From Candidatus Saccharimonadota bacterium (lineage in GTDB: Bacteria; Patescibacteriota; Gracilibacteria; BD1-5; UBA2023), in the NCBI GenBank assembly GCA_042852035.1, contig BAAFHK010000001.1, positions 330,001-362,000 on the forward strand: a stretch of 32,000 bases of DNA, written 5' to 3'. The position numbers were made by a program, and so were the translations under genes. Every line of letters starts with the position of its first letter. Within the stretch, counting starts at the first letter, position 1. Shown here piece after piece: positions 10,089-23,643 of this stretch. The notes under the pieces were generated by a model. The model saw only the letters and a program-made list of their open reading frames with translations, did not search any database and was not told the DNA's origin.

Positions 10089-10132
10089 TATTTTAATTTT
10101 GACAATTTTAAATAAATATATATTCATTTCTA

Positions 10133-11011
10133 ATGAAAAACTGAAATTTTCCACCAAATGATTGAGTTCTTAGAGAAAATCTAGGGAGAATGAAAATTGG
10201 AAAACCTAATCCTGAAATTACTCAAGTTGCGTGAGAAGCTCCATTAATACATGTAACAACATTAGAACGAGCATTAGGCATTATAGATTCTTGAACTATA
10301 GATTCTTGCGCAAAATCTGAGCGAAAATGAAGACATTTCGATCGATTAGCAATAAATACTGATAAACTAGATAGAAAATATTGATTAGATAGATATGTCT
10401 TCACTACACTTTGAAGAAATGCATTACAAAATGGTTGAAGCGTATCTTTTGTGTTTCGACCGCAAAAATTACTTGAATGAAGATGAGTAGTTGCTTCTTT
10501 GAAGGAGGTTTGAGACTACTGAGCATTAGTTTCACAAGAAGCAGAGTTCATATATAGAGAGGTGACTTGAAATGACCCAGCAAAAATGAATAGAATTGCA
10601 ATGAATAGATTTTTAGAGTGATTAGTTCGTTGAGCAGACTTTAGAAGAGTTTTTGCATGGTTTTTGCAGCGAAATTTTACAAAGTATCTTGAATATTTAA
10701 CAACACTTACTTATCCAGGAGAAGAACTTGTTCACAATGACATCTGATCTACTAATGTATGGGGATGACCGCAGGTGATGATTCCAGAATCAATAAACCT
10801 TGATGAACTCGCTTACATTGTCACGAGAACAAGAGAAGAAAGCGAACTTATCCTGAGGATGGCTGAGAAGAAATGATTGAAAACCCCTACACATTCTCTG
10901 GAAGAAGAGCTTCACTTATCTATGTTTGATAGTACTCCATGAATTCAAACAAGCGGTCTTATTCAGGCTATGAATATCTTAGTTAAAGACTTATATTTTG
11001 GTGGCAAATAA
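10133..11011 (+). CDS. Hypothetical protein (292 aa; alternative start 10190)
   Basis: The frame is completely invisible in the standard-code track. Under table 25 there is no TAA/TAG from 10112 to 11008 (TAA at 11009-11011). The sequence looks protein-like (..APLIHVTTLERALGIIDSGTI..RYVFTTLGR..GGPQVMIPESINLDELAYIV..). No family assigned. Confidence 0.6.
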
Positions 11012-11070: not shown

Positions 11071-11119
11071 AATAGAAAAATACGAGCCAACAGATGGCTC
11101 AATATATTTCCTCATTAAT

Positions 11120-11138
11120 AAGTGTTATAAATACAATT
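11120..11138. promoter_or_regulatory. Candidate NrtR operator (nadE upstream, proximal)
   Basis: AAGTGT-TATAAAT-ACAATT has one arm mismatch and ends 25 nt before the nadE ATG. This is the same two-box layout as at pncA. Confidence 0.5.
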
Positions 11139-11162
11139 ATTATTTCTTCACCATTTCAAATT

Positions 11163-12059
11163 ATGGAAGCAGTACAAAGCATGGAGGGACTCAAGATGGC
11201 ATCTCGTAATCTTGATTATGCACAGGTAGAGGCTTCACTCGTGGCACAACTCCGAGCGTATGCAGAGTGAGCAAAACAACGATGATATGTTGTTGGAGTG
11301 AGTGGTGGAGTCGATAGCGCGGTTGTCTCGACTCTTGCCGCGAAGACAGGACTCCCGCTCTATGTCGTCGAGATGCCGATACATCAGAGAGAGGAGGAAG
11401 TGAGTCGTTCGAGTGAACATATTGCTTGGCTCCAGGAAAACTATCCGAATGTCGTAGCATGGAAAGAGGATCTCGGAGATGTGTTCGACCTCATGCAGGC
11501 AAAAATCGAACGCGTTGCGAGTGTCCTCGGAGCACCGAATGGGACCAAACTCGCCCTCGCCAATACTCGCTCACGACAGCGTATGGAATGGCTCTATGCG
11601 ATGGCGGGATCACTTGGGCTCCTCGTCGCAGGTACTGGGAATAGGGTCGAAGACTATGGTATCGGATTTTTCACGAAGTATGGTGATGGAGGAGTCGATG
11701 TAAGTCCAATCGGAGAACTCTACAAATCAGAAGTCCGAGCCCTCGGTCGACATATGGGAGTGAGGCCATCCCTCACTGAAGCGGTCCCGACTGATGGACT
11801 CCATACCGATGGTGCAACCGATGAAGACCAGATTGGTGCCACTTATGATGAGCTCGAGTGGGCAATGGTCGAACATGATGAGTTTGCTAGTATGTGAGCC
11901 TCGAATTTTGTATCTACTGATGCTTCTACTAGTCTCGAATGGGCAAAGAGAACCTTCTCTGGTCGAGCGGCTGAAGTCATGTCTACCTACCTCGGTCGTC
12001 ACTATCAAAATGCTCATAAGATGGCGATGCCACCAGTATTTGCACTCCCAGTATCATAA
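11163..12059 (+). CDS. nadE: NH3-dependent NAD+ synthetase
   Basis: 298 aa with 3 in-frame TGA. It carries the PP-loop VVGVSGGVDSAVV plus ..ANTRSRQRM.., LVAGTGNRVEDYGIGFFTKYGDGGVD and PIGELYKSEVRALG. TAA stop at 12057-12059. Confidence 0.92.
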
Positions 12060-12680: not shown

Positions 12681-13269
12681 TTACACCCTTCATAAACCAA
12701 CTACAATTCCTGTAACTCAACTTTCTCTCAATAGAATAAGCCAAAGAGGGAAATGGATGCAGGTGATGGAACAAACCCTTCGTCGAGTGCATGATAAAGA
12801 AATATTTCAGTGGGAAGTGCTCTCGAAAAAACCGGCTGTTACCGTACTTCCTATCACTCCTGCGAAGGAGCTTATCCTCATCGATCAGTTTCGCTATCCG
12901 ATCATGGACTGGGAACTCGAGTGCCCAGCAGAGACTATGGATCAGGAAGGGGATACTCCTGAGTGAGCGGCAGTGCGAGCCCTCAGTGAGGAGATAGGAT
13001 ATCGGTGTGAACGCATCCAGAGGGTGGCAACCTATGCTTCCTCATGAGGAACTACGGATGAACTCTCGTATGGATTTCTTGCTCATGATTGTACTCCACT
13101 TGAGGGTGGTCACCATCGAAGTGAAGATGAGATAATCCGTGTGAATCATGTCCCTCTCTCTCATATCGAACACTTTCTCGACACACGTATCCGTGACGGA
13201 CAAATTCTCAATCCCAAAATGGATGGACTTATTGGGAGATGTCTGAGAAATATTTACTCCTCTTCATAA
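12670..13269 (+). CDS. Nudix hydrolase (ADP-ribose pyrophosphatase-like by context)
   Basis: 199 aa. ATG 12670 overlaps the nadD stop by 11 nt. The Nudix box remnant reads GDTPE[G]AAVRALSEEIGY. TAA stop at 13267-13269. Confidence 0.78.
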
Positions 13270-13307
13270 GAACTTCATCTGAGAATACTCTCTGATGCAA
13301 TCATTAT

Positions 13308-13337
13308 AAAAAAGGTGCCCCCGCGTGAGCGGGGGCA
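13308..13337. terminator. GC-rich bidirectional intrinsic terminator
   Basis: A6 (13308-13313), then TGCCCCCGC (13316-13324), loop GTGA, then GCGGGGGCA (13329-13337). Read on the minus strand it is a 9-bp GC stem followed by a T-run, ending the island operon. It lies between convergent genes. Confidence 0.7.
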
Positions 13338-13444
13338 TGAGGGTTTTGTGCTCAACGCCACACATGCAGCCCTACGGGTGCATGGGGAACTCAGGTCAAG
13401 TCTCAGACTCGAAAGAGTTATTTATCGGAGAGACACAGGTGTGG

Positions 13445-13999
13445 TCAACCCCCGGGAATGGGGGCTCGCTTCTTCGTCTTGAACGATCCTTCGGTTGAAT
13501 CGTCCGTGACTGGTTTCAGGATCTCATCCAGGTTGCTCATGCGCGGGAAACCGAAGATGCCCGCGACGGCACCGCTCGGAAAGGTTGCGAGGAACGTCTT
13601 GTACTCGCGACCCCGATCGATGAGTCCAGTCTGGGCGGCGCGGAACTGTGCCAGGCCTGATTCACCGATCGTGACGATCTTGAGCTGGAGCTCTGCCGAA
13701 ACGTTCGGATAGGTCTGGCCGAGCCAGAGCATCATGGCGCCTTGGCCCGTCTTGCCCTGCCAGCCGTTCGTGGTCGCCGTGACCATCTCGCGGAGCATGT
13801 CACGGTACTTCTTCTCACCGAGATTGGCGGCCTCGAGGGGCCCATAGTAGGCGTTTGCCATCACGTTCTGGTTGTTGTCGTAGGCAGCCTTGATGGCTGC
13901 CTCATAGCGTTGGGCTGTGTTGTACGTCATGATCACGTACAGTACAGCGACGAGGAGCACAGCCACGATGCCCATGATCCATTTGGTAGATGTCTTCAT
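13445..13999 (-). CDS. LemA-like membrane protein (standard-code coordinates)
   Basis: 184 aa from ATG 13999, which has GAAGGA 9 nt upstream; the track's TTG start is at 14020. It has an N-terminal TM helix (WIMGIVAVLLVAVLYVIMTYN) and a C-terminal FPSGAVAGIFGFP resembling the LemA FP..A..FGF motif. It stops at TGA 13445-13447; under table 25 it would extend 9 codons to TAA 13418-13420. Confidence 0.65.
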   Translation of the reverse strand: MKTSTKWIMGIVAVLLVAVLYVIMTYNTAQRYEAAIKAAYDNNQNVMANAYYGPLEAANLGEKKYRDMLREMVTATTNGWQGKTGQGAMMLWLGQTYPNVSAELQLKIVTIGESGLAQFRAAQTGLIDRGREYKTFLATFPSGAVAGIFGFPRMSNLDEILKPVTDDSTEGSFKTKKRAPIPGG

Positions 14000-14012
14000 T
14001 TGACGCATTCCT

Positions 14013-15272
14013 TCATTCAAGTGATGCCTCGATGAGGCGGGAAAACAGGATGGACATGATCAGGCAAAAGGCGATGACCAGAGGGTAGAGCCACCATGGG
14101 AGCACAATCCCCCATGACAGGTACTCAAAGGTTTTCATCTGCCGTCTTTCCCAATCTGCTTGGACTCGATCTCGGATGACCGTCATGAGTTTTGGATCGT
14201 CGAGACTGAGTACTTGAAGCTGATCTCTCAGATTGATGCGGATTTCTGGCTTTACCGACCAGAAATCTATCACATCGACCCATTCAATCTTCGGGAAGTT
14301 TATCGAGCCAACGACGATTGTCAGCTGATTTTTCCTCCCGTGGATCCAGTAGGCGTCAAGCGCTGTGGTGAATTCACGACTTGCTTCATCGACCACATAG
14401 ATTACGACATTCACCTCTTTCGAGGGGCCGAATGATCCGTTGAGTCTATTGAGTTCAGCTTCAATTCGTTGCTTCCATTCCGATGGAACTTGGACTCCTT
14501 TCGTAATGACTCTGTGACTCATCCAGGGGCCAATACCCGCTGGGTGTTCCACGATGGATGGCACTCTTTCGAGCTTTCCGAGGTATGGTTTTGCCACCTC
14601 GGCTGAAGTCTGGTACAGATTGTTCCCAGCGAGGATGTAGTTCACTACAGGTTTTTCATAGGTGACATAGAGCTCACTGCTCTTTCCGCCTATGTAGTCC
14701 GTCCTGAACTTCCTACCGTCACCGATACTGCATTGGTCAAAATTGCTGTTCGGAACTTGCCTTTCATTCTTGAGTTCGGTTACGAGGTTTCGGTAGTTGG
14801 TGCTACCTATCCGATGAGTGCTCCCATCGGAAAACTCGATCTTGAAGACATCAGGATGGTGATTGTCGCAGTAGGTGTTGGTTACGCTACTGGTACAGTT
14901 TCCATCTTTGTCACGCCCAGTACAGGTTGTTTCTGTTCTGATGCTTGTATAGGATTCTTCCCAAGCTCCTCCGATGGCTTGGGCGTTGAAGTTGCTCTTG
15001 TCTGCAATACCAGTGGTGTAGAATACACCAACGGTGAAGTAGACGGTGATGAATGCTGGCCAAAGAAAAATGAATGGCCAACCCGTGCTGATTTGCTTAT
15101 ATTTTTTCAACAAGTAGTTACCCACTGGAACTGCGACGAGCAGTGCCCAGAAGGTTACTTGGTGAATGGTGATTTTCATTGTCACCAAAAAAGCATTCTC
15201 AAGGTACCAGATGGGACCAATAAGGATGCTTCCTACAAGCAATATCAGAGCTATGGTTACTCTCTGATCCAT
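14013..15272 (-). CDS. Polytopic membrane protein, 419 aa, unknown function (standard-code coordinates)
   Basis: Intact in the standard-code track. AAGGAG (15277-15282) sits 4 nt before the ATG. It has about 4 N-terminal TM helices, a Cys-containing central domain, and a segment VNVVIYVVDEASREFTTALDAYWIHGRKNQLTIVVGS faintly reminiscent of TPM domains that often accompany LemA, followed by a C-terminal TM helix. It stops at TGA 14013-14015. Confidence 0.65.
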   Translation of the reverse strand: MDQRVTIALILLVGSILIGPIWYLENAFLVTMKITIHQVTFWALLVAVPVGNYLLKKYKQISTGWPFIFLWPAFITVYFTVGVFYTTGIADKSNFNAQAIGGAWEESYTSIRTETTCTGRDKDGNCTSSVTNTYCDNHHPDVFKIEFSDGSTHRIGSTNYRNLVTELKNERQVPNSNFDQCSIGDGRKFRTDYIGGKSSELYVTYEKPVVNYILAGNNLYQTSAEVAKPYLGKLERVPSIVEHPAGIGPWMSHRVITKGVQVPSEWKQRIEAELNRLNGSFGPSKEVNVVIYVVDEASREFTTALDAYWIHGRKNQLTIVVGSINFPKIEWVDVIDFWSVKPEIRINLRDQLQVLSLDDPKLMTVIRDRVQADWERRQMKTFEYLSWGIVLPWWLYPLVIAFCLIMSILFSRLIEASLE

Positions 15273-15513
15273 GTTGCTCCTTGTAGAAAAGGCGAGACTG
15301 TTAAGGTTCGTAACCGTTTGTCTGCTTTCCGTTTCAAGTGTGGTACTTCTGAGAGGGTATTTGTCTCGGAAGGTTATTTGACCATCTACCTGACGTACTT
15401 GCTAGGCTTAAACTGATTATAAGTATAAAAATTAGTTGTCAATACAATTTAATATAAAAATGTCAATATATAATTTTATGACTTTTTTTAGGATTTCAGG
15501 TTTTCAGTATAAT

Positions 15514-17513: not shown

Positions 17514-19004
17514 TTATGAAACTCTTTCTAGATTTTCAACTTTTACTCGAGATCCATCGGAGTAGATTATTCATTCATAGACTCAACGCTCGTCTCAAAA
17601 TCTTGCATCGTTCATGGTAATTCCTCACGATACTGCCACTCATCATGTCTCATAAAGAAGCGTCGTTAAACCATGATCATCATTGGTTCTGTGTCAAAAA
17701 GGAATTGCTGCAAAAGCAATTTCGCGGAGTTTTGGGGATTTTAATTGATGTTTTGGACTGGTAAAAACTCGAGCATTAAAATCGCCTTCCTGGGAACCTC
17801 AAGAAAGTATGAATCGAATCTTTTCTCAAGATGCATCAGTAAGGCCTCGAACAATTTGTTTTTTGGGAATTCATATCTCATTTTCCAAAGAAAAAGAAGG
17901 AGTGCGGTAAGGTCAAAATTGTCGGACTTGATAGATGAGTGGTTTTCTTCCATGGAATCAGAATTCCATGTGAAATGAGTAATCTTCTCAAAAAACATTT
18001 CTCTTTTGAACTTTCTTATAGAGCTCTACGAGTGAAGGTATTTTTCCATTAATTCAATCTGAATATCCTTCCGTTTCAATAGTTTCTCCAGTGTTTGAAT
18101 CATAGATGATACTGCTTGGATGATCATCAAATTCATAAAAATAATCTGATTCTCATCAGAGTCTTTGTTGTTCGCTTCTTCTTGTTGGATTTCGAAAGGT
18201 AATGATATACACTCATCTTCTGTGTGGACTCTCTGAAATACCTCAAATAGCACTGCCATCAAGAGGGGATTCCACTTGAATATAGATGCCAGTTTCTTTT
18301 GTGGAACGAAGTCCATCGAACTCGAATCATCCTGCTAGAGAAAATTTCTGTCGCATTCCTTCGATGATTCTGACATGTTTTGGAACTCAGATAGAGAGGA
18401 GTCGATCCATGAGTTCCTTATAATTCGTTGTATCGGTTCATTCTTTCACTCATGAAAGAAGTCGAATATACATATCCATGGGGATTTCATCATCTGTTTC
18501 ATATAATACCTCATCCTCGCCCATCACAAGAAATCCTCTGTTTGAAGGTGGGGCGAATTCTCAGTGATGGTATTGGTAACTATCCTCCCATTCTTTAGGA
18601 AAACGCATTTCACATCAAAATTCTTGAAAGAAAGCCAGAGCTCGATACACCTTAAATAGCTCTGTTGTTTTATGGTCCAAATCTTTAATTGTTTTTGTTT
18701 TCAATGGATATCTTGTAAGCTCTGTTGGTAGTGCTCCAATATATCATCTATGGTCATCAGGATGAGTAGATCGATAGATTAAGCCTTCTTCCATACCTTG
18801 AAAATCTGGCGGAAGATTCGGTATGTTTCATGACCTAAGTATTTCTCTATCAATAAGAAAGCCAGGGAGAATATGGTCTTTCAATTCAGGAAATGTTCGT
18901 AAGTATTCAAGAATTCAGGCCTTTGATCACATGCGTTCGGTATATTCCTTGAGTCTCGAATCGAGAGCATCGTTATGATGCTCTCAGAAGTGAAGTATTG
19001 CCAT
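17514..19004 (-). CDS. Hypothetical protein, 496 aa (possibly ATP-grasp/PEP-utilising-like; unassigned)
   Basis: The continuous table-25 frame from ATG 19004 to TAA 17514-17516 has 29 in-frame TGA, so it is absent from the standard-code track. The sequence is protein-like (..YIGALPTELTRYPL.., ..HMEFGFHGRKPLIYQVRQFGP.. resembling the DIE[FW]..ilQ.RP end of PPDK_N-type ATP-grasp domains). Confidence 0.65.
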
Positions 19005-19104
19005 ATCTGTACATTTAATGTTTATTGATAATATGATAATAATATAAGAAGTCAAATACTCCAAAATCGCTAGATTAATCTCACATTTTCTATATACTCA
19101 CACT

Positions 19105-20058
19105 ATGCAAACCATACTTGTCACCTGAGGTGCTGGATTTATTGGGTCCCACTTTCTTAATACTTTTGTTTCGAGAGAGAGTCATATCCGTTTTCTTAAT
19201 GTTGATAGTCTCACATATGCCTCAGATCAGAATCGCATTCAAACAAGCGTGAAAAATGCGCCGAATTATTCATTCGAACATGTCGATATTTCTGAGGGAG
19301 AATCCCTCGAAAATATCTACAAAAAACACCAACCAACGGATGTAATCCACTTTGCCTGAGAAACCCATGTAGATCGCTCTATAATTGATCCTGATATATT
19401 TATTCGCTCAAATATTGTTGGCACAAAAAACCTCCTTGAATGTCACCGAAAATATTCAAAGTGAAGGTTTCATTATGTTTCCACTGATGAGGTGTACGGA
19501 GATATTTCCGAGGGGAATTTTTCGAAAGAAACAGATGTGCTCTCGCCATCTTCCCCATATTCTGCCTCAAAGGCAGCAGCAGAAATGCTCGTTATGGCAT
19601 ATAGTCGAACGTACAAGGTTGACTCCACTATTTCACGATGATCAAATACGTATGGTGTAGGTCAATACCCAGAAAAGCTTATTCCACTTTCGCTCAAAAA
19701 GCTTTCTCTCTGAAAGAAAATCTCACTCTATGGAGATGGACTTAATGTGAGAGATTGGCTTTCGGTTGATGATCATGTAGGTGCGATTTGGGAGATTTTT
19801 ACTCGCGGAAAAAATAGTGAAATCTACAATATATGAGCAAGCAATCCCCTTACGAATAAGGAGATTATAGAATTACTCCTTGAACTTTTAGGAAAAGATA
19901 CATCGTGGATTGAGCATACTACTGACCGACCATGACATGATAGGAGATATGCGCTTGATACAACTAAAATAGAACATATGCTTGACTGGAAACCAATATC
20001 AGACTTTCAAGCTGAAATAAAAAAAATTATAGCAACTTTTCCATGACTCCAAAAATAA
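19105..20058 (+). CDS. rfbB: dTDP-glucose 4,6-dehydratase
   Basis: 317 aa. It carries ILVT[G]GAGFIGS, STDEVYG, YSASKAA and DRP[G][11 protein letters not shown] stop at 20056-20058. Confidence 0.93.
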
Positions 20059-22857: not shown

Positions 22858-22890
22858 ATACATGCTTTTAATTTCTAATTTTTTTAACGT

Positions 22891-23643
22891 ATGAAAAAGC
22901 AGGTACTCGTGTCAATGCTCGCTATCGCATCGACTCTTACTCTCGTATCAGGTGCGTATGCTGATAAGCCTGATGTGAAAAAGGATCCATGTGCCCTCAA
23001 TGGATCAGGTGTAGCAAATAATCCAGAGCGTTGCGATCTCAATGCTCGTAAGGATGCGTTTCATTCTGGTGCTCAGGTAAGAAAGGAGGATAACAAAAAT
23101 CTCCGTGCTGCAAACTCTGGTGCGGTTCATGATTTTCATGATACTCACTCAGGTGCAGTGCGTGATGCAGTTAAGTCACTCTCTGGCGCTCAACGTGATG
23201 CATTCAAGGATGCTAAAGAGGTTCAAAAGGATCTCCGAACAAGCATGTCTGGAAAGACTCTTGAAGAGAAGCTCGCACTTCGAAATGAACTCGAAGCAGC
23301 TCAAGTAGAAAAGCTTAAGGCAAAACTTGCAAATAATCCAGAGCTTCTCGCTGCTCGTCTCGCTGTGTATGAACAAAATAAGGCACGTCGCGATACTATC
23401 GTAGCAAATCGTACGAAGAATCTCGTAGATCGAAGCGCTCTCACTCTTGAATCGGTAAAGCTTCTCGATACTCAGGTACGTGAGAATATGTCCAATATTT
23501 CTTCTGCTGATCAGGAAGCAAAAATCGTGAAGAAGATTGATGAGAAAATCGCTAAGATTAACGCATCAAATGGACTCACTGCAGCATCAAAAACTGAAAT
23601 GGTAAATATTCTTACCACTCTCAAGGCTGACCTTCTGAAGTAA
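22891..23643 (+). CDS. Secreted protein with SGA-repeat region and coiled-coil C-terminus (250 aa)
   Basis: Intact in both codes. The signal peptide is MKKQVLVSMLAIASTLTLVSGAYA/DKP. There are four [HNL]SGA[QV] repeats (HSGAQVR, NSGAVHD, HSGAVRD, LSGAQRD). TAA stop, followed by a strong terminator. Confidence 0.75.
   Translation: MKKQVLVSMLAIASTLTLVSGAYADKPDVKKDPCALNGSGVANNPERCDLNARKDAFHSGAQVRKEDNKNLRAANSGAVHDFHDTHSGAVRDAVKSLSGAQRDAFKDAKEVQKDLRTSMSGKTLEEKLALRNELEAAQVEKLKAKLANNPELLAARLAVYEQNKARRDTIVANRTKNLVDRSALTLESVKLLDTQVRENMSNISSADQEAKIVKKIDEKIAKINASNGLTAASKTEMVNILTTLKADLLK

Follow-up and report, generated by a model that had tools for sequence, protein, structure and literature searches.

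The operon and its genetic code

The window analysed here is a stretch of 32,000 nucleotides from a Candidatus Saccharimonadota bacterium (contig BAAFHK010000001.1, positions 330,001 to 362,000), and it contains two adjacent minus-strand genes, A and B, that are written in the standard genetic code inside a genome in which TGA encodes glycine. The recoding of the host was evident from the Walker A motif of atpD, which reads G-TGA-A-TGA-VGKT in the window sequence, and the long open reading frames (ORFs) of the window were open only with TGA as a sense codon. In the native genes TGA made up 179 of the 511 Gly codons (35%). By contrast, not one in-frame TGA was found among the 603 codons of A and B, 44 of which encode Gly, and the probability of this result at the native TGA share was about 6e-9. 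Out of frame, TGA was common (13 + 16 occurrences in A and 7 + 5 in B), and a count over 14 genes gave 113 and 159 off-frame TGA and none in frame. Because TGA is frequent in the other two frames, the avoidance is frame-specific. Both genes also end at TGA, so that under translation table 25, in which TGA is Gly, each would be extended (Table 1).

The 616-aa table-25 product of A was 100% identical to HHAS10_03530 (P0001), which is encoded on a 750 kb contig of a metagenome-assembled genome (MAG) deposited as ‘Candidatus Altimarinota’. HHAS10 belongs to JAEDAM01/BD1-5 and lives in activated sludge as an episymbiont of Zoogloea; UGA was reassigned to Gly in its clade, whereas the c__Gracilibacteria of GTDB retain UGA as a stop (PMC11393006). 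The gene for release factor 2 (RF2), prfB, was reported to be absent from BD1-5 genomes (PMC6851277).

A preliminary description of the window, made from the letters alone, had recognized the standard-code signature and had held that GC content alone does not explain it, and both points stood. Its coordinates and lengths for the two ORFs, the absence of TGA, the TGA stops, and the table-25 extensions were confirmed. The share of one Gly codon in five that it gave for TGA in host genes was right for atpD (8 of 41), and the three TGA-Gly codons of nadE were found as described, but the share over all native genes of the window was the higher value given above. Likewise, the richness of the island in GC was borne out (0.48-0.59 in 500-nt windows of 13001-15000), whereas the background was not near 30% but mostly 0.33-0.45, with a window mean of 0.40. 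The products had been expected to be mistranslated in the recipient; all internal codons, however, are code-neutral, and the stop codons alone are affected.

Table 1. Features of the A-B operon, in positions of the window
Feature	Position	Strand	Details
Promoter-like site	15416..15442	-	TTGACA (15442-15437), 15-nt spacer, TATAAT (15421-15416); read from the sequence
5' leader	15273..15415	-	about 140 nt; small hairpin (loop GACAAAUACCC); Shine-Dalgarno AAGGAG (15277-15282)
Gene A	14013..15272	-	419-aa membrane protein; stop TGA (14013-14015); in-frame TGA 0
Table-25 extension of A	13422..14012	-	197 codons, out of frame over B, to TAA (13422-13424); 616-aa product
Gene B	13445..13999	-	184 aa, or 191 aa from TTG 14020; stop TGA (13445-13447); in-frame TGA 0
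Intrinsic terminator	13306..13337	-	9-bp GC-rich stem (13337-13316), then T-run

The A-B unit is a self-contained operon with a promoter-like site, a leader, the two genes, and an intrinsic terminator. In the alignment with L001, one of the other loci that carry the pair (L001-L008, L012, L013, and others), the hexamers and the 15-nt spacing of the promoter-like site were identical to those of the window; a consensus promoter scan did not report the site because it demands a spacer of 16-18 nt. The leader hairpin (15330-15395) showed an invariant loop, GACAAAUACCC, and compensatory changes in the stem among the three sequences compared (the window, L001, and L003), and an Rfam search of the island including this hairpin matched no family. 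B begins nine bases past the stop of A, with AAGGA preceding its ATG (13999), and its table-25 extension amounts to nine codons, up to a TAA at 13418-13420. A hairpin followed by a T-run was located after B, or after A where B is missing, in 9 of 9 close-clade loci. A tRNA or flanking repeats as an integration site were considered and rejected, since the scan of the window found no tRNA, no adjacent mobility gene or integrase, and only two-copy repeats of 14-19 nt. A 14-nt direct repeat (13/14 identical) lies outside the terminator at 13286-13299 and over the start codon of A at 15258-15271; it is probably a chance match, and it does not bracket the promoter.

Some other genes of the window stood out in their use of TGA. 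A and B had been described as the only long genes intact in the standard code, which did not hold, because a further ORF of about 250 residues (252 aa) at 22888..23643 on the plus strand is also intact, free of TGA, and closed by TAA/TAG. It contains 9 Gly codons, and 0/9 TGA is not significant. Its product has a signal-peptide-like N-terminus, is rich in Lys and Ala, is probably a coiled coil, and matched no Pfam model. At the opposite extreme from the island, two native genes were very dense in TGA, with 19 in 300 codons (10112-11011) and 33 in 584 codons (17514-19265). The nadE gene (11076-12059; GC 0.52) encodes a short NH3-type enzyme and includes the three TGA-Gly codons mentioned above. 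In the same place L001 has a gene for a 628-aa CN-hydrolase/NAD-synthase fusion that is 30% identical to nadE of the window, and the window nadE is, from this comparison, probably a xenologous replacement.

Age of the operon and codon use in recoded relatives

The operon is flanked by NrtR (15.5-16.2 kb) on one side and by Nudix, NMNAT-like, and NadE genes (11.2-13.27 kb) on the other, all assigned by Pfam, in agreement with the NrtR/NAD cluster proposed earlier. The order NrtR, A-B, Nudix was identical in two independent assemblies, L001 (a Gracilibacteria MAG from NCBI, L001/L015; A 86% identical) and L003 (a Logan assembly; A 70% identical). Between the window and L001, the flanking orthologues were 57-85% identical with a synonymous divergence (dS) from 1.5 to saturated, and the pair showed dS values of 0.95 (A) and 0.68 (B) with dN/dS ratios of 0.09 and 0.11, respectively. 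The composition of the pair was that of a recent island (GC at third codon positions, GC3, 0.56/0.77 for A/B against 0.32 in native genes), but its divergence was not, since its dS ranged from 0.7 to above 2 in the comparisons with L001 and L003. Among conserved Gly columns, TGA was present in at least one genome in 37 of 118 columns of the flanking genes versus 0 of 34 columns of the pair (P ~3e-6). The neighbours thus turned TGA over freely while the pair gained none, which excludes lack of time as the reason. As judged from these alignments, the operon is older than the split of these genomes, its translation uses the A and B frames, and the dN/dS ratios of about 0.1 indicate purifying selection on both proteins. 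On each of three single contigs (750 kb, 445 kb, and 78 kb), TGA-rich native genes lay to both sides of the pair. QueH was located near the pair in the window, L001, and L002, and HU was located 3-8 kb from it in L002 and L012 (recoded) and in L066 (standard-code). The A proteins of L002 and L012 were only 30% identical although their HU proteins were 74% identical; between the window and L002 the divergence of A (48% identity) was comparable to that of the linked native QueH (54%).

The pair was then compared across recoded genomes. Close homologues (42-86% identity) were contained in nine TGA-recoded loci, namely the window and L001-L008, and distant homologues (25-30% identity) were contained in two further recoded contigs, L012 and L013; the Gly recoding was verified with the GMN motif of CorA, the ABC Walker B motif, and CTP synthase. 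In these 11 loci, 0 TGA were found in about 480 Gly codons of the pair, whereas about 112 were expected from local usage. The clearest case was L002, a locus of 24% GC in which native genes use TGA for 73% of Gly: the pair had 0/37 (P ~1e-21), although its GC3 (0.16/0.24, native 0.14) and codon usage were like those of native genes and it was fully ameliorated. In L012, the native share was 22% and the pair had 0/44. The finding is real and more general than the preliminary description held. That description had named orthologous islands in table-25 relatives with in-frame TGA-Gly codons and TAA/TAG stops as a sign of native coding sequence, and the outcome was mixed: orthologous islands exist, some with TAA/TAG stops, and none has an in-frame TGA. 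For this comparison, the deposited gene calls were extended for table-25 ORFs, and a greedy caller gave spurious long ORFs in the GC-rich loci. The loci L004-L008 read TGA as Gly (in the CorA GMN and ABC Walker B motifs) at 51-56% GC, which is at or above the range of 0.21-0.53 quoted for recoded Gracilibacteria/Absconditabacteria (PMC8629427).

The stop codons of the pair followed the pattern of standard-code genes. TGA closed A in 8 of the 11 loci and B in 5 of 10, and so the pair differed from a native code-25 gene in its terminal codon as well as in its Gly codons. All three stop codons were in use, and the choice followed the GC content of the pair: copies rich in GC ended in TGA, and the AT-rich ones (L002, L012, and L013) ended in TAA or TAG. 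In 16 of 17 sequences, the tail of A past the invariant L385 was 31-37 aa long despite turnover of its sequence, which shows that the position of the stop is conserved a few codons past the last transmembrane (TM) helix. The next TAA/TAG was 96-284 codons away after the stop of A and 3-78 codons away after that of B. Since the length and the frame of the extension vary among loci, with the frame of B offset by 0, +1, or +2 from that of A, the extension of A is not a conserved domain. The same variation in frame led to the rejection of a programmed frameshift or an in-frame A-B fusion. Synonymous shuffles of B, made to see whether selection holds the A frame open over B as expected for a real 616-aa product, gave P values of 0.03 in the window, 0.08 in L001, 0.52 in L003, 1.0 in L005 and L006, and 0.03 in L008. 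Codon usage thus accounts for most of the open frame, which was rejected as evidence for such a product.

Two further observations concern genes other than the pair. The HU genes shunned TGA, with 1/8 Gly codons in L002 (1588-1860) against 73% in native genes and 0/9 in L012 (2183-2455) against 22%, and expression-linked avoidance of TGA seems to be real in these genomes. In L013 (1-9920; also L014), a TGA-recoded contig of 1.7 Mb, eight consecutive genes free of TGA form a block of 9.9 kb or more, and the pair stands at its end. The block includes genes for an AAA ATPase and DUF6638, and one of its genes has a TGA stop in an ATGA overlap; directly downstream, most Gly codons are TGA in the genes that follow (Y1 transposase, DUF1801, and others). 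PADLOC gave no match in this block, and PHROG matches beyond the pair were only weak.

The proteins and their phage-type relatives

Protein A is predicted to be a polytopic membrane protein of phrog_2087, with four N-terminal TM helices, an extracytoplasmic β-rich domain in which four Cys are invariant, then a TPM-like α/β domain, and finally an anchoring TM helix at the C-terminus. Its AlphaFold2 model had a mean predicted local distance difference test (pLDDT) score of 87.8. Residues 203-413 of A matched positions 148-351 of the 360 positions of the phrog_2087 profile (E 2.7e-29), and the A homologue of L013 matched nearly the whole profile (positions 2-354 of 360, E 4e-46). A had no match to Pfam, including TPM (PF04536), at E <= 1, and the A homologue of phage phiN3 reached PF04536 with an E value of 0.014 and 15.9 bits, below the cutoff of 22.1. 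In structure, the top hits of the A model in the PDB by Foldseek were the TPM proteins AtTLP18.3, PG_0361, cg2496, and BA41 (probability 0.97-0.99, E ~1e-2, target-normalised TM score 0.48-0.57), and the hits in BFVD were to phage proteins over their full length, including one of Atu_ph07 (E 2e-19) and a ‘TPM domain-containing protein’ (E 1e-14).

Protein B is helical with a single TM pass and is called LemA-like only for its annotation and its architecture; its residues 2-181 matched positions 4-183 of the 187 positions of phrog_1383 (E 6e-31). By BLASTP it was 30% identical (E 1e-27) to the phage gene labelled ‘LemA’ that adjoins an A homologue. LemA (PF04011) was not matched by B or by seven close homologues; the LemA signal consisted of a ‘faint’ precomputed match on the L012 homologue and the label given by the depositor of one phage. 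The AlphaFold2 model of B was all-helical with an N-terminal TM helix, with a pLDDT of 60 and no credible match in the PDB. Searches of both proteins with Pfam, PADLOC, and PDB sequences returned nothing usable. The initial suggestion of LemA and TPM was thus a reasonable guess, in line with a probable TPM-like fold of A and, in the limited sense above, with the LemA-like features of B, but it did not hold as membership of the Pfam families. We infer that A and B act together at the cell envelope.

The same pair is widespread in large phages. A was matched by tblastn in 336 phage records, including Kuttervirus, phiM12/phiN3, FLC9, and phiA8-29, and the B homologue was the next gene after A in Kuttervirus (Salmonella phage sal1), phiN3, and FLC9; in sal1 it is the gene labelled ‘LemA’ and lies beside rIIB and rIIA. 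In IMG/VR, where a broader A profile was required for the matches, 46 contigs contained A, many of them 100-500 kb long. B follows A directly in 36 of them, and in another 7 it is found on the same strand no more than about 1.1 kb away. In the window, in all close-clade loci with B, and in sal1, FLC9, and phiN3, A is upstream of B, adjacent, and on the same strand. No close copy was found on phage contigs of IMG/VR or GenBank, the best being 22-36% identical, and neither the IMG/VR scan with the close-clade A profile nor the two scans of metagenome contigs gave anything close.

An exhaustive HMMER search returned 1456 homologues, and their scores fell into two separate ranges, 517-711 bits for the close clade and at most 273 bits for all others. 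Standard-code carriers were also found, namely L017 (44% identical), L065 (GC 0.62), and L066 (GC 0.55), and the stop of A was TGA in L065 and L066. The contig L017 (1-1700) was binned as ‘uncultured Gammaproteobacteria’, and B is split in it by a frameshift; the relatives of its RluD are from Patescibacteria, it encodes a pilin of a type IV secretion system, and by these signs it looks like a standard-code bacterium from the candidate phyla radiation (CPR). In a neighbour-joining tree, the code-25 copies of the close clade grouped together with L017/P0020 as their sister. The preliminary description had named the host or prey of the episymbiont as a plausible donor, but the nearest relatives were recoded BD1-5 genomes, followed by the standard-code CPR contig and then by large phages, and none was Zoogloea-like. 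The operon likely originated, so far as these relationships indicate, from a gene pool common to standard-code CPR relatives and large phages and not from Zoogloea. An origin in a standard-code genome, as first proposed, is accordingly plausible in view of the GC-rich carriers L065 and L066, but a recent acquisition is not.

Why the operon keeps the standard code

An assembly chimera, in which a standard-code contig was joined into a recoded genome, was the alternative named at the outset, and the steps in composition at both borders would fit it. It can be given next to no weight, because the NrtR and Nudix junctions recur in the NCBI MAG and in the Logan assembly, native TGA-rich genes flank the pair on the three single contigs, and the promoter region is alignable between the window and L001. 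A recent transfer of un-ameliorated DNA was the preferred explanation of the preliminary description, with a standard-code bacterium as the donor that might be the host or prey, and is very improbable. It agrees with the high GC and GC3 of the pair in the window, with its TGA stops, with the existence of GC-rich standard-code carriers, and with the competence genes of HHAS10 and the GC-rich genome of its host Zoogloea (PMC11393006), but it conflicts with the conservation of the site in L001 and L003 at saturated flanking dS and low dN/dS, with the L002 and L012 copies, which are ameliorated yet free of TGA, and with the recoded BD1-5 affinity of the nearest relatives, which are not proteobacteria. 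Even nadE, a probable xenologue, has already acquired TGA codons.

Recurrent import and high expression are both unlikely, though less so than the preceding two. If a code-11-compatible pool of phages or mobile elements kept replacing the chromosomal copies, the pair would never have had time to gain TGA. The membership of both proteins in phage families, the TGA-free block of eight genes in the TGA-rich contig L013, the different contexts of the pair between genomes, a GC content of the pair above that of the host in the window, L001, L003, and L002, and a dS of the pair below that of its flanks are all in line with such replacement, and many predicted phages of Gracilibacteria are without in-frame TGA (PMC10746230). 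Against it, no close copy was found on the phage contigs of IMG/VR or GenBank, the insertion site is constant in three diverged genomes, A and the native QueH are similarly diverged between the window and L002, and no integrase, tRNA, or flanking repeat was found at the window. Prophages in these lineages are all TGA-rich, and compatible phages back up their TGA stops (Liu et al., PMC10746230), whereas A has no backup for 96-284 codons. In a native, highly expressed operon, TGA would instead be purged as a poor or error-prone Gly codon, and the TGA stops would be an inherited accident with harmless tails. This would resemble the situation of HU and the mild depletion in atpD of the window (20% versus 35%); B of L012 prefers C-ending codons as HU does, and a U34 wobble ambiguity between UGA and UGG was noted for these lineages (PMC8629427). 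However, high expression leaves unexplained why five or more lineages at saturated divergence have kept a terminal TGA in a conserved place, with TAA one transition away, and gives no account of a stop choice that tracks GC. The C-ending share of the pair in the window (0.60-0.75) was also far from that of atpD (0.24), the avoidance is absolute in the pair and only partial in HU and atpD, and in the L013 island TGA is missing from the remaining six genes as well.

The explanation that we prefer, with a probability of roughly 0.55, is that the pair is a long-resident, phage-type membrane operon that is kept by selection readable as a pair of standard-code genes. The pair resides long-term in the chromosomes of TGA=Gly bacteria of BD1-5/JAEDAM01 and, across recoded genomes, evolves by standard-code rules. 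Its anatomy, homology, age, purifying selection, and frame-specific avoidance of TGA are shown by the results above; that its freedom from TGA reflects selection and not a shortage of time is inferred. As to where this selection acts, our tentative choice, held at less than even odds, is a situation in which UGA terminates, either a cell state without decoding of UGA as Gly or a standard-code translation context. Such selection would account for both the in-frame avoidance and the conserved stops that track GC. It is tentatively ranked slightly ahead of recurrent import and of expression-linked avoidance; otherwise, the pair would be translated by code 25 in the ordinary way, with a junk tail of 197 aa on A.

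Several points weigh against the preferred reading. No mechanism for UGA termination in a BD1-5 cell is known, and for HHAS10 only the window was open to a search for prfB, arfB, and tRNA-Gly(UCA). HU is also low in TGA, and expression-linked avoidance could explain the in-frame part of the pattern. The dS of the pair between the window and L001 is below that of the flanks, which could mean a later allelic replacement. Moreover, the homologue P0017 is short at its N-terminus, so that an in-frame TGA could go unseen in it, several clade members are on contigs too short for inference of the code, the gene tree is a neighbour-joining tree only, the model of B is poor, and the phrog_2087 and phrog_1383 families are uncharacterised.

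A stronger form of the preferred reading, in which the standard code is kept deliberately because the pair is meant for translation where UGA is a stop, is doubtful. In one version, the operon would be a code-mismatch switch: in a normal code-25 cell, A would be made with a long junk tail over B, and when decoding of UGA as Gly fails, correct A and B would be produced and would themselves act at the membrane in defence or exclusion. The failure could be caused by infection with a standard-code phage, through RF2 that it supplies or through destruction of tRNA-Gly(UCA). In the other version, the operon would be T-DNA-like, an episymbiont operon expressed in a standard-code host (Zoogloea for HHAS10), with its σ70-like promoter, Shine-Dalgarno sites, terminator, and GC3-rich codons as the features that would permit this.

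A recoded genetic code is usually taken to hold for the whole genome and to shut out foreign genes like a firewall. The functional operon described here has stayed long inside TGA=Gly genomes and obeys the standard code, including stops that the cell supposedly ignores. Conditional decoding or expression in another cell, if true, would mean that CPR episymbionts use the code itself as a further, new level of regulation or of host manipulation; recurrent import, if true, would measure the leakiness of the code firewall. The matter also affects annotation. Public table-25/table-4 annotation fuses A with the out-of-frame tail, as in HHAS10_03530 (616 aa) and in L001 (10001-11932; 643 aa, with W at TGA), and the public gene calls of L001, the only locus for which B calls were viewed, include no separate B. 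With A fused by table-25 callers and, in L001, B dropped, the family is mis-annotated in public databases.

As a protein pair, the operon is a further member of a known, uncharacterised phage-type module of LemA-like and TPM-like proteins. What is new is that an operon with a long residence, in 11 or more recoded loci, stays written in the standard code, with TGA stops that lack a backup; the literature searched contained no description of such an operon, and the nearest report was that of free phages (PMC10746230). The closest system is the phage pair of phrog_2087 and phrog_1383 (Ackermannviridae/Kuttervirus, Sinorhizobium phiM12/phiN3, Burkholderia FLC9, Agrobacterium Atu_ph07, and the jumbo-phage contigs of IMG/VR), which agrees with the window in families, order, and strand, in a start of B a few to tens of bases after A, and in the architecture of both proteins, A with TM helices, a β domain, a TPM-like domain, and a C-terminal TM helix and B with an N-terminal TM helix and a helical domain. 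The window pair differs in its identity of only 22-36%, its chromosomal location without other phage genes nearby, and its TGA=Gly genome, and the phage pair lies beside rIIA/rIIB in Kuttervirus, with phrog_1383 labelled as a ‘virion structural protein’. Bacterial LemA (PF04011)/TPM (PF04536) pairs combine a single-pass helical protein with a membrane-anchored protein of TPM fold, which the predicted architecture of the window pair resembles. Unlike them, the window pair does not match the Pfam models, has the TPM-like gene first and the LemA-like gene second, and encodes four extra N-terminal TM helices and the Cys-containing β domain in A.

With respect to the genetic code, the code-11-compatible phages of Liu et al. 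(2023, mBio, PMC10746230) are similar in that their genes are associated with TGA=Gly hosts, contain no in-frame TGA, and sometimes use TGA stops. They are whole free genomes, whereas the window has a lone two-gene chromosomal operon that is vertically kept, and they back their TGA stops with a nearby TAA/TAG, which A of the window type lacks over the distances given above. In the recoding switch phages of Borges et al. (2022, bioRxiv 10.1101/2021.08.26.457843), as summarised in PMC10746230, it is likewise the disagreement of a set of genes with the cell over the code that decides which proteins are made correctly. There, the phage is recoded in a standard-code host and brings release factors and suppressor tRNAs of its own; in the window the roles are the other way round, and machinery for a switch was not seen.

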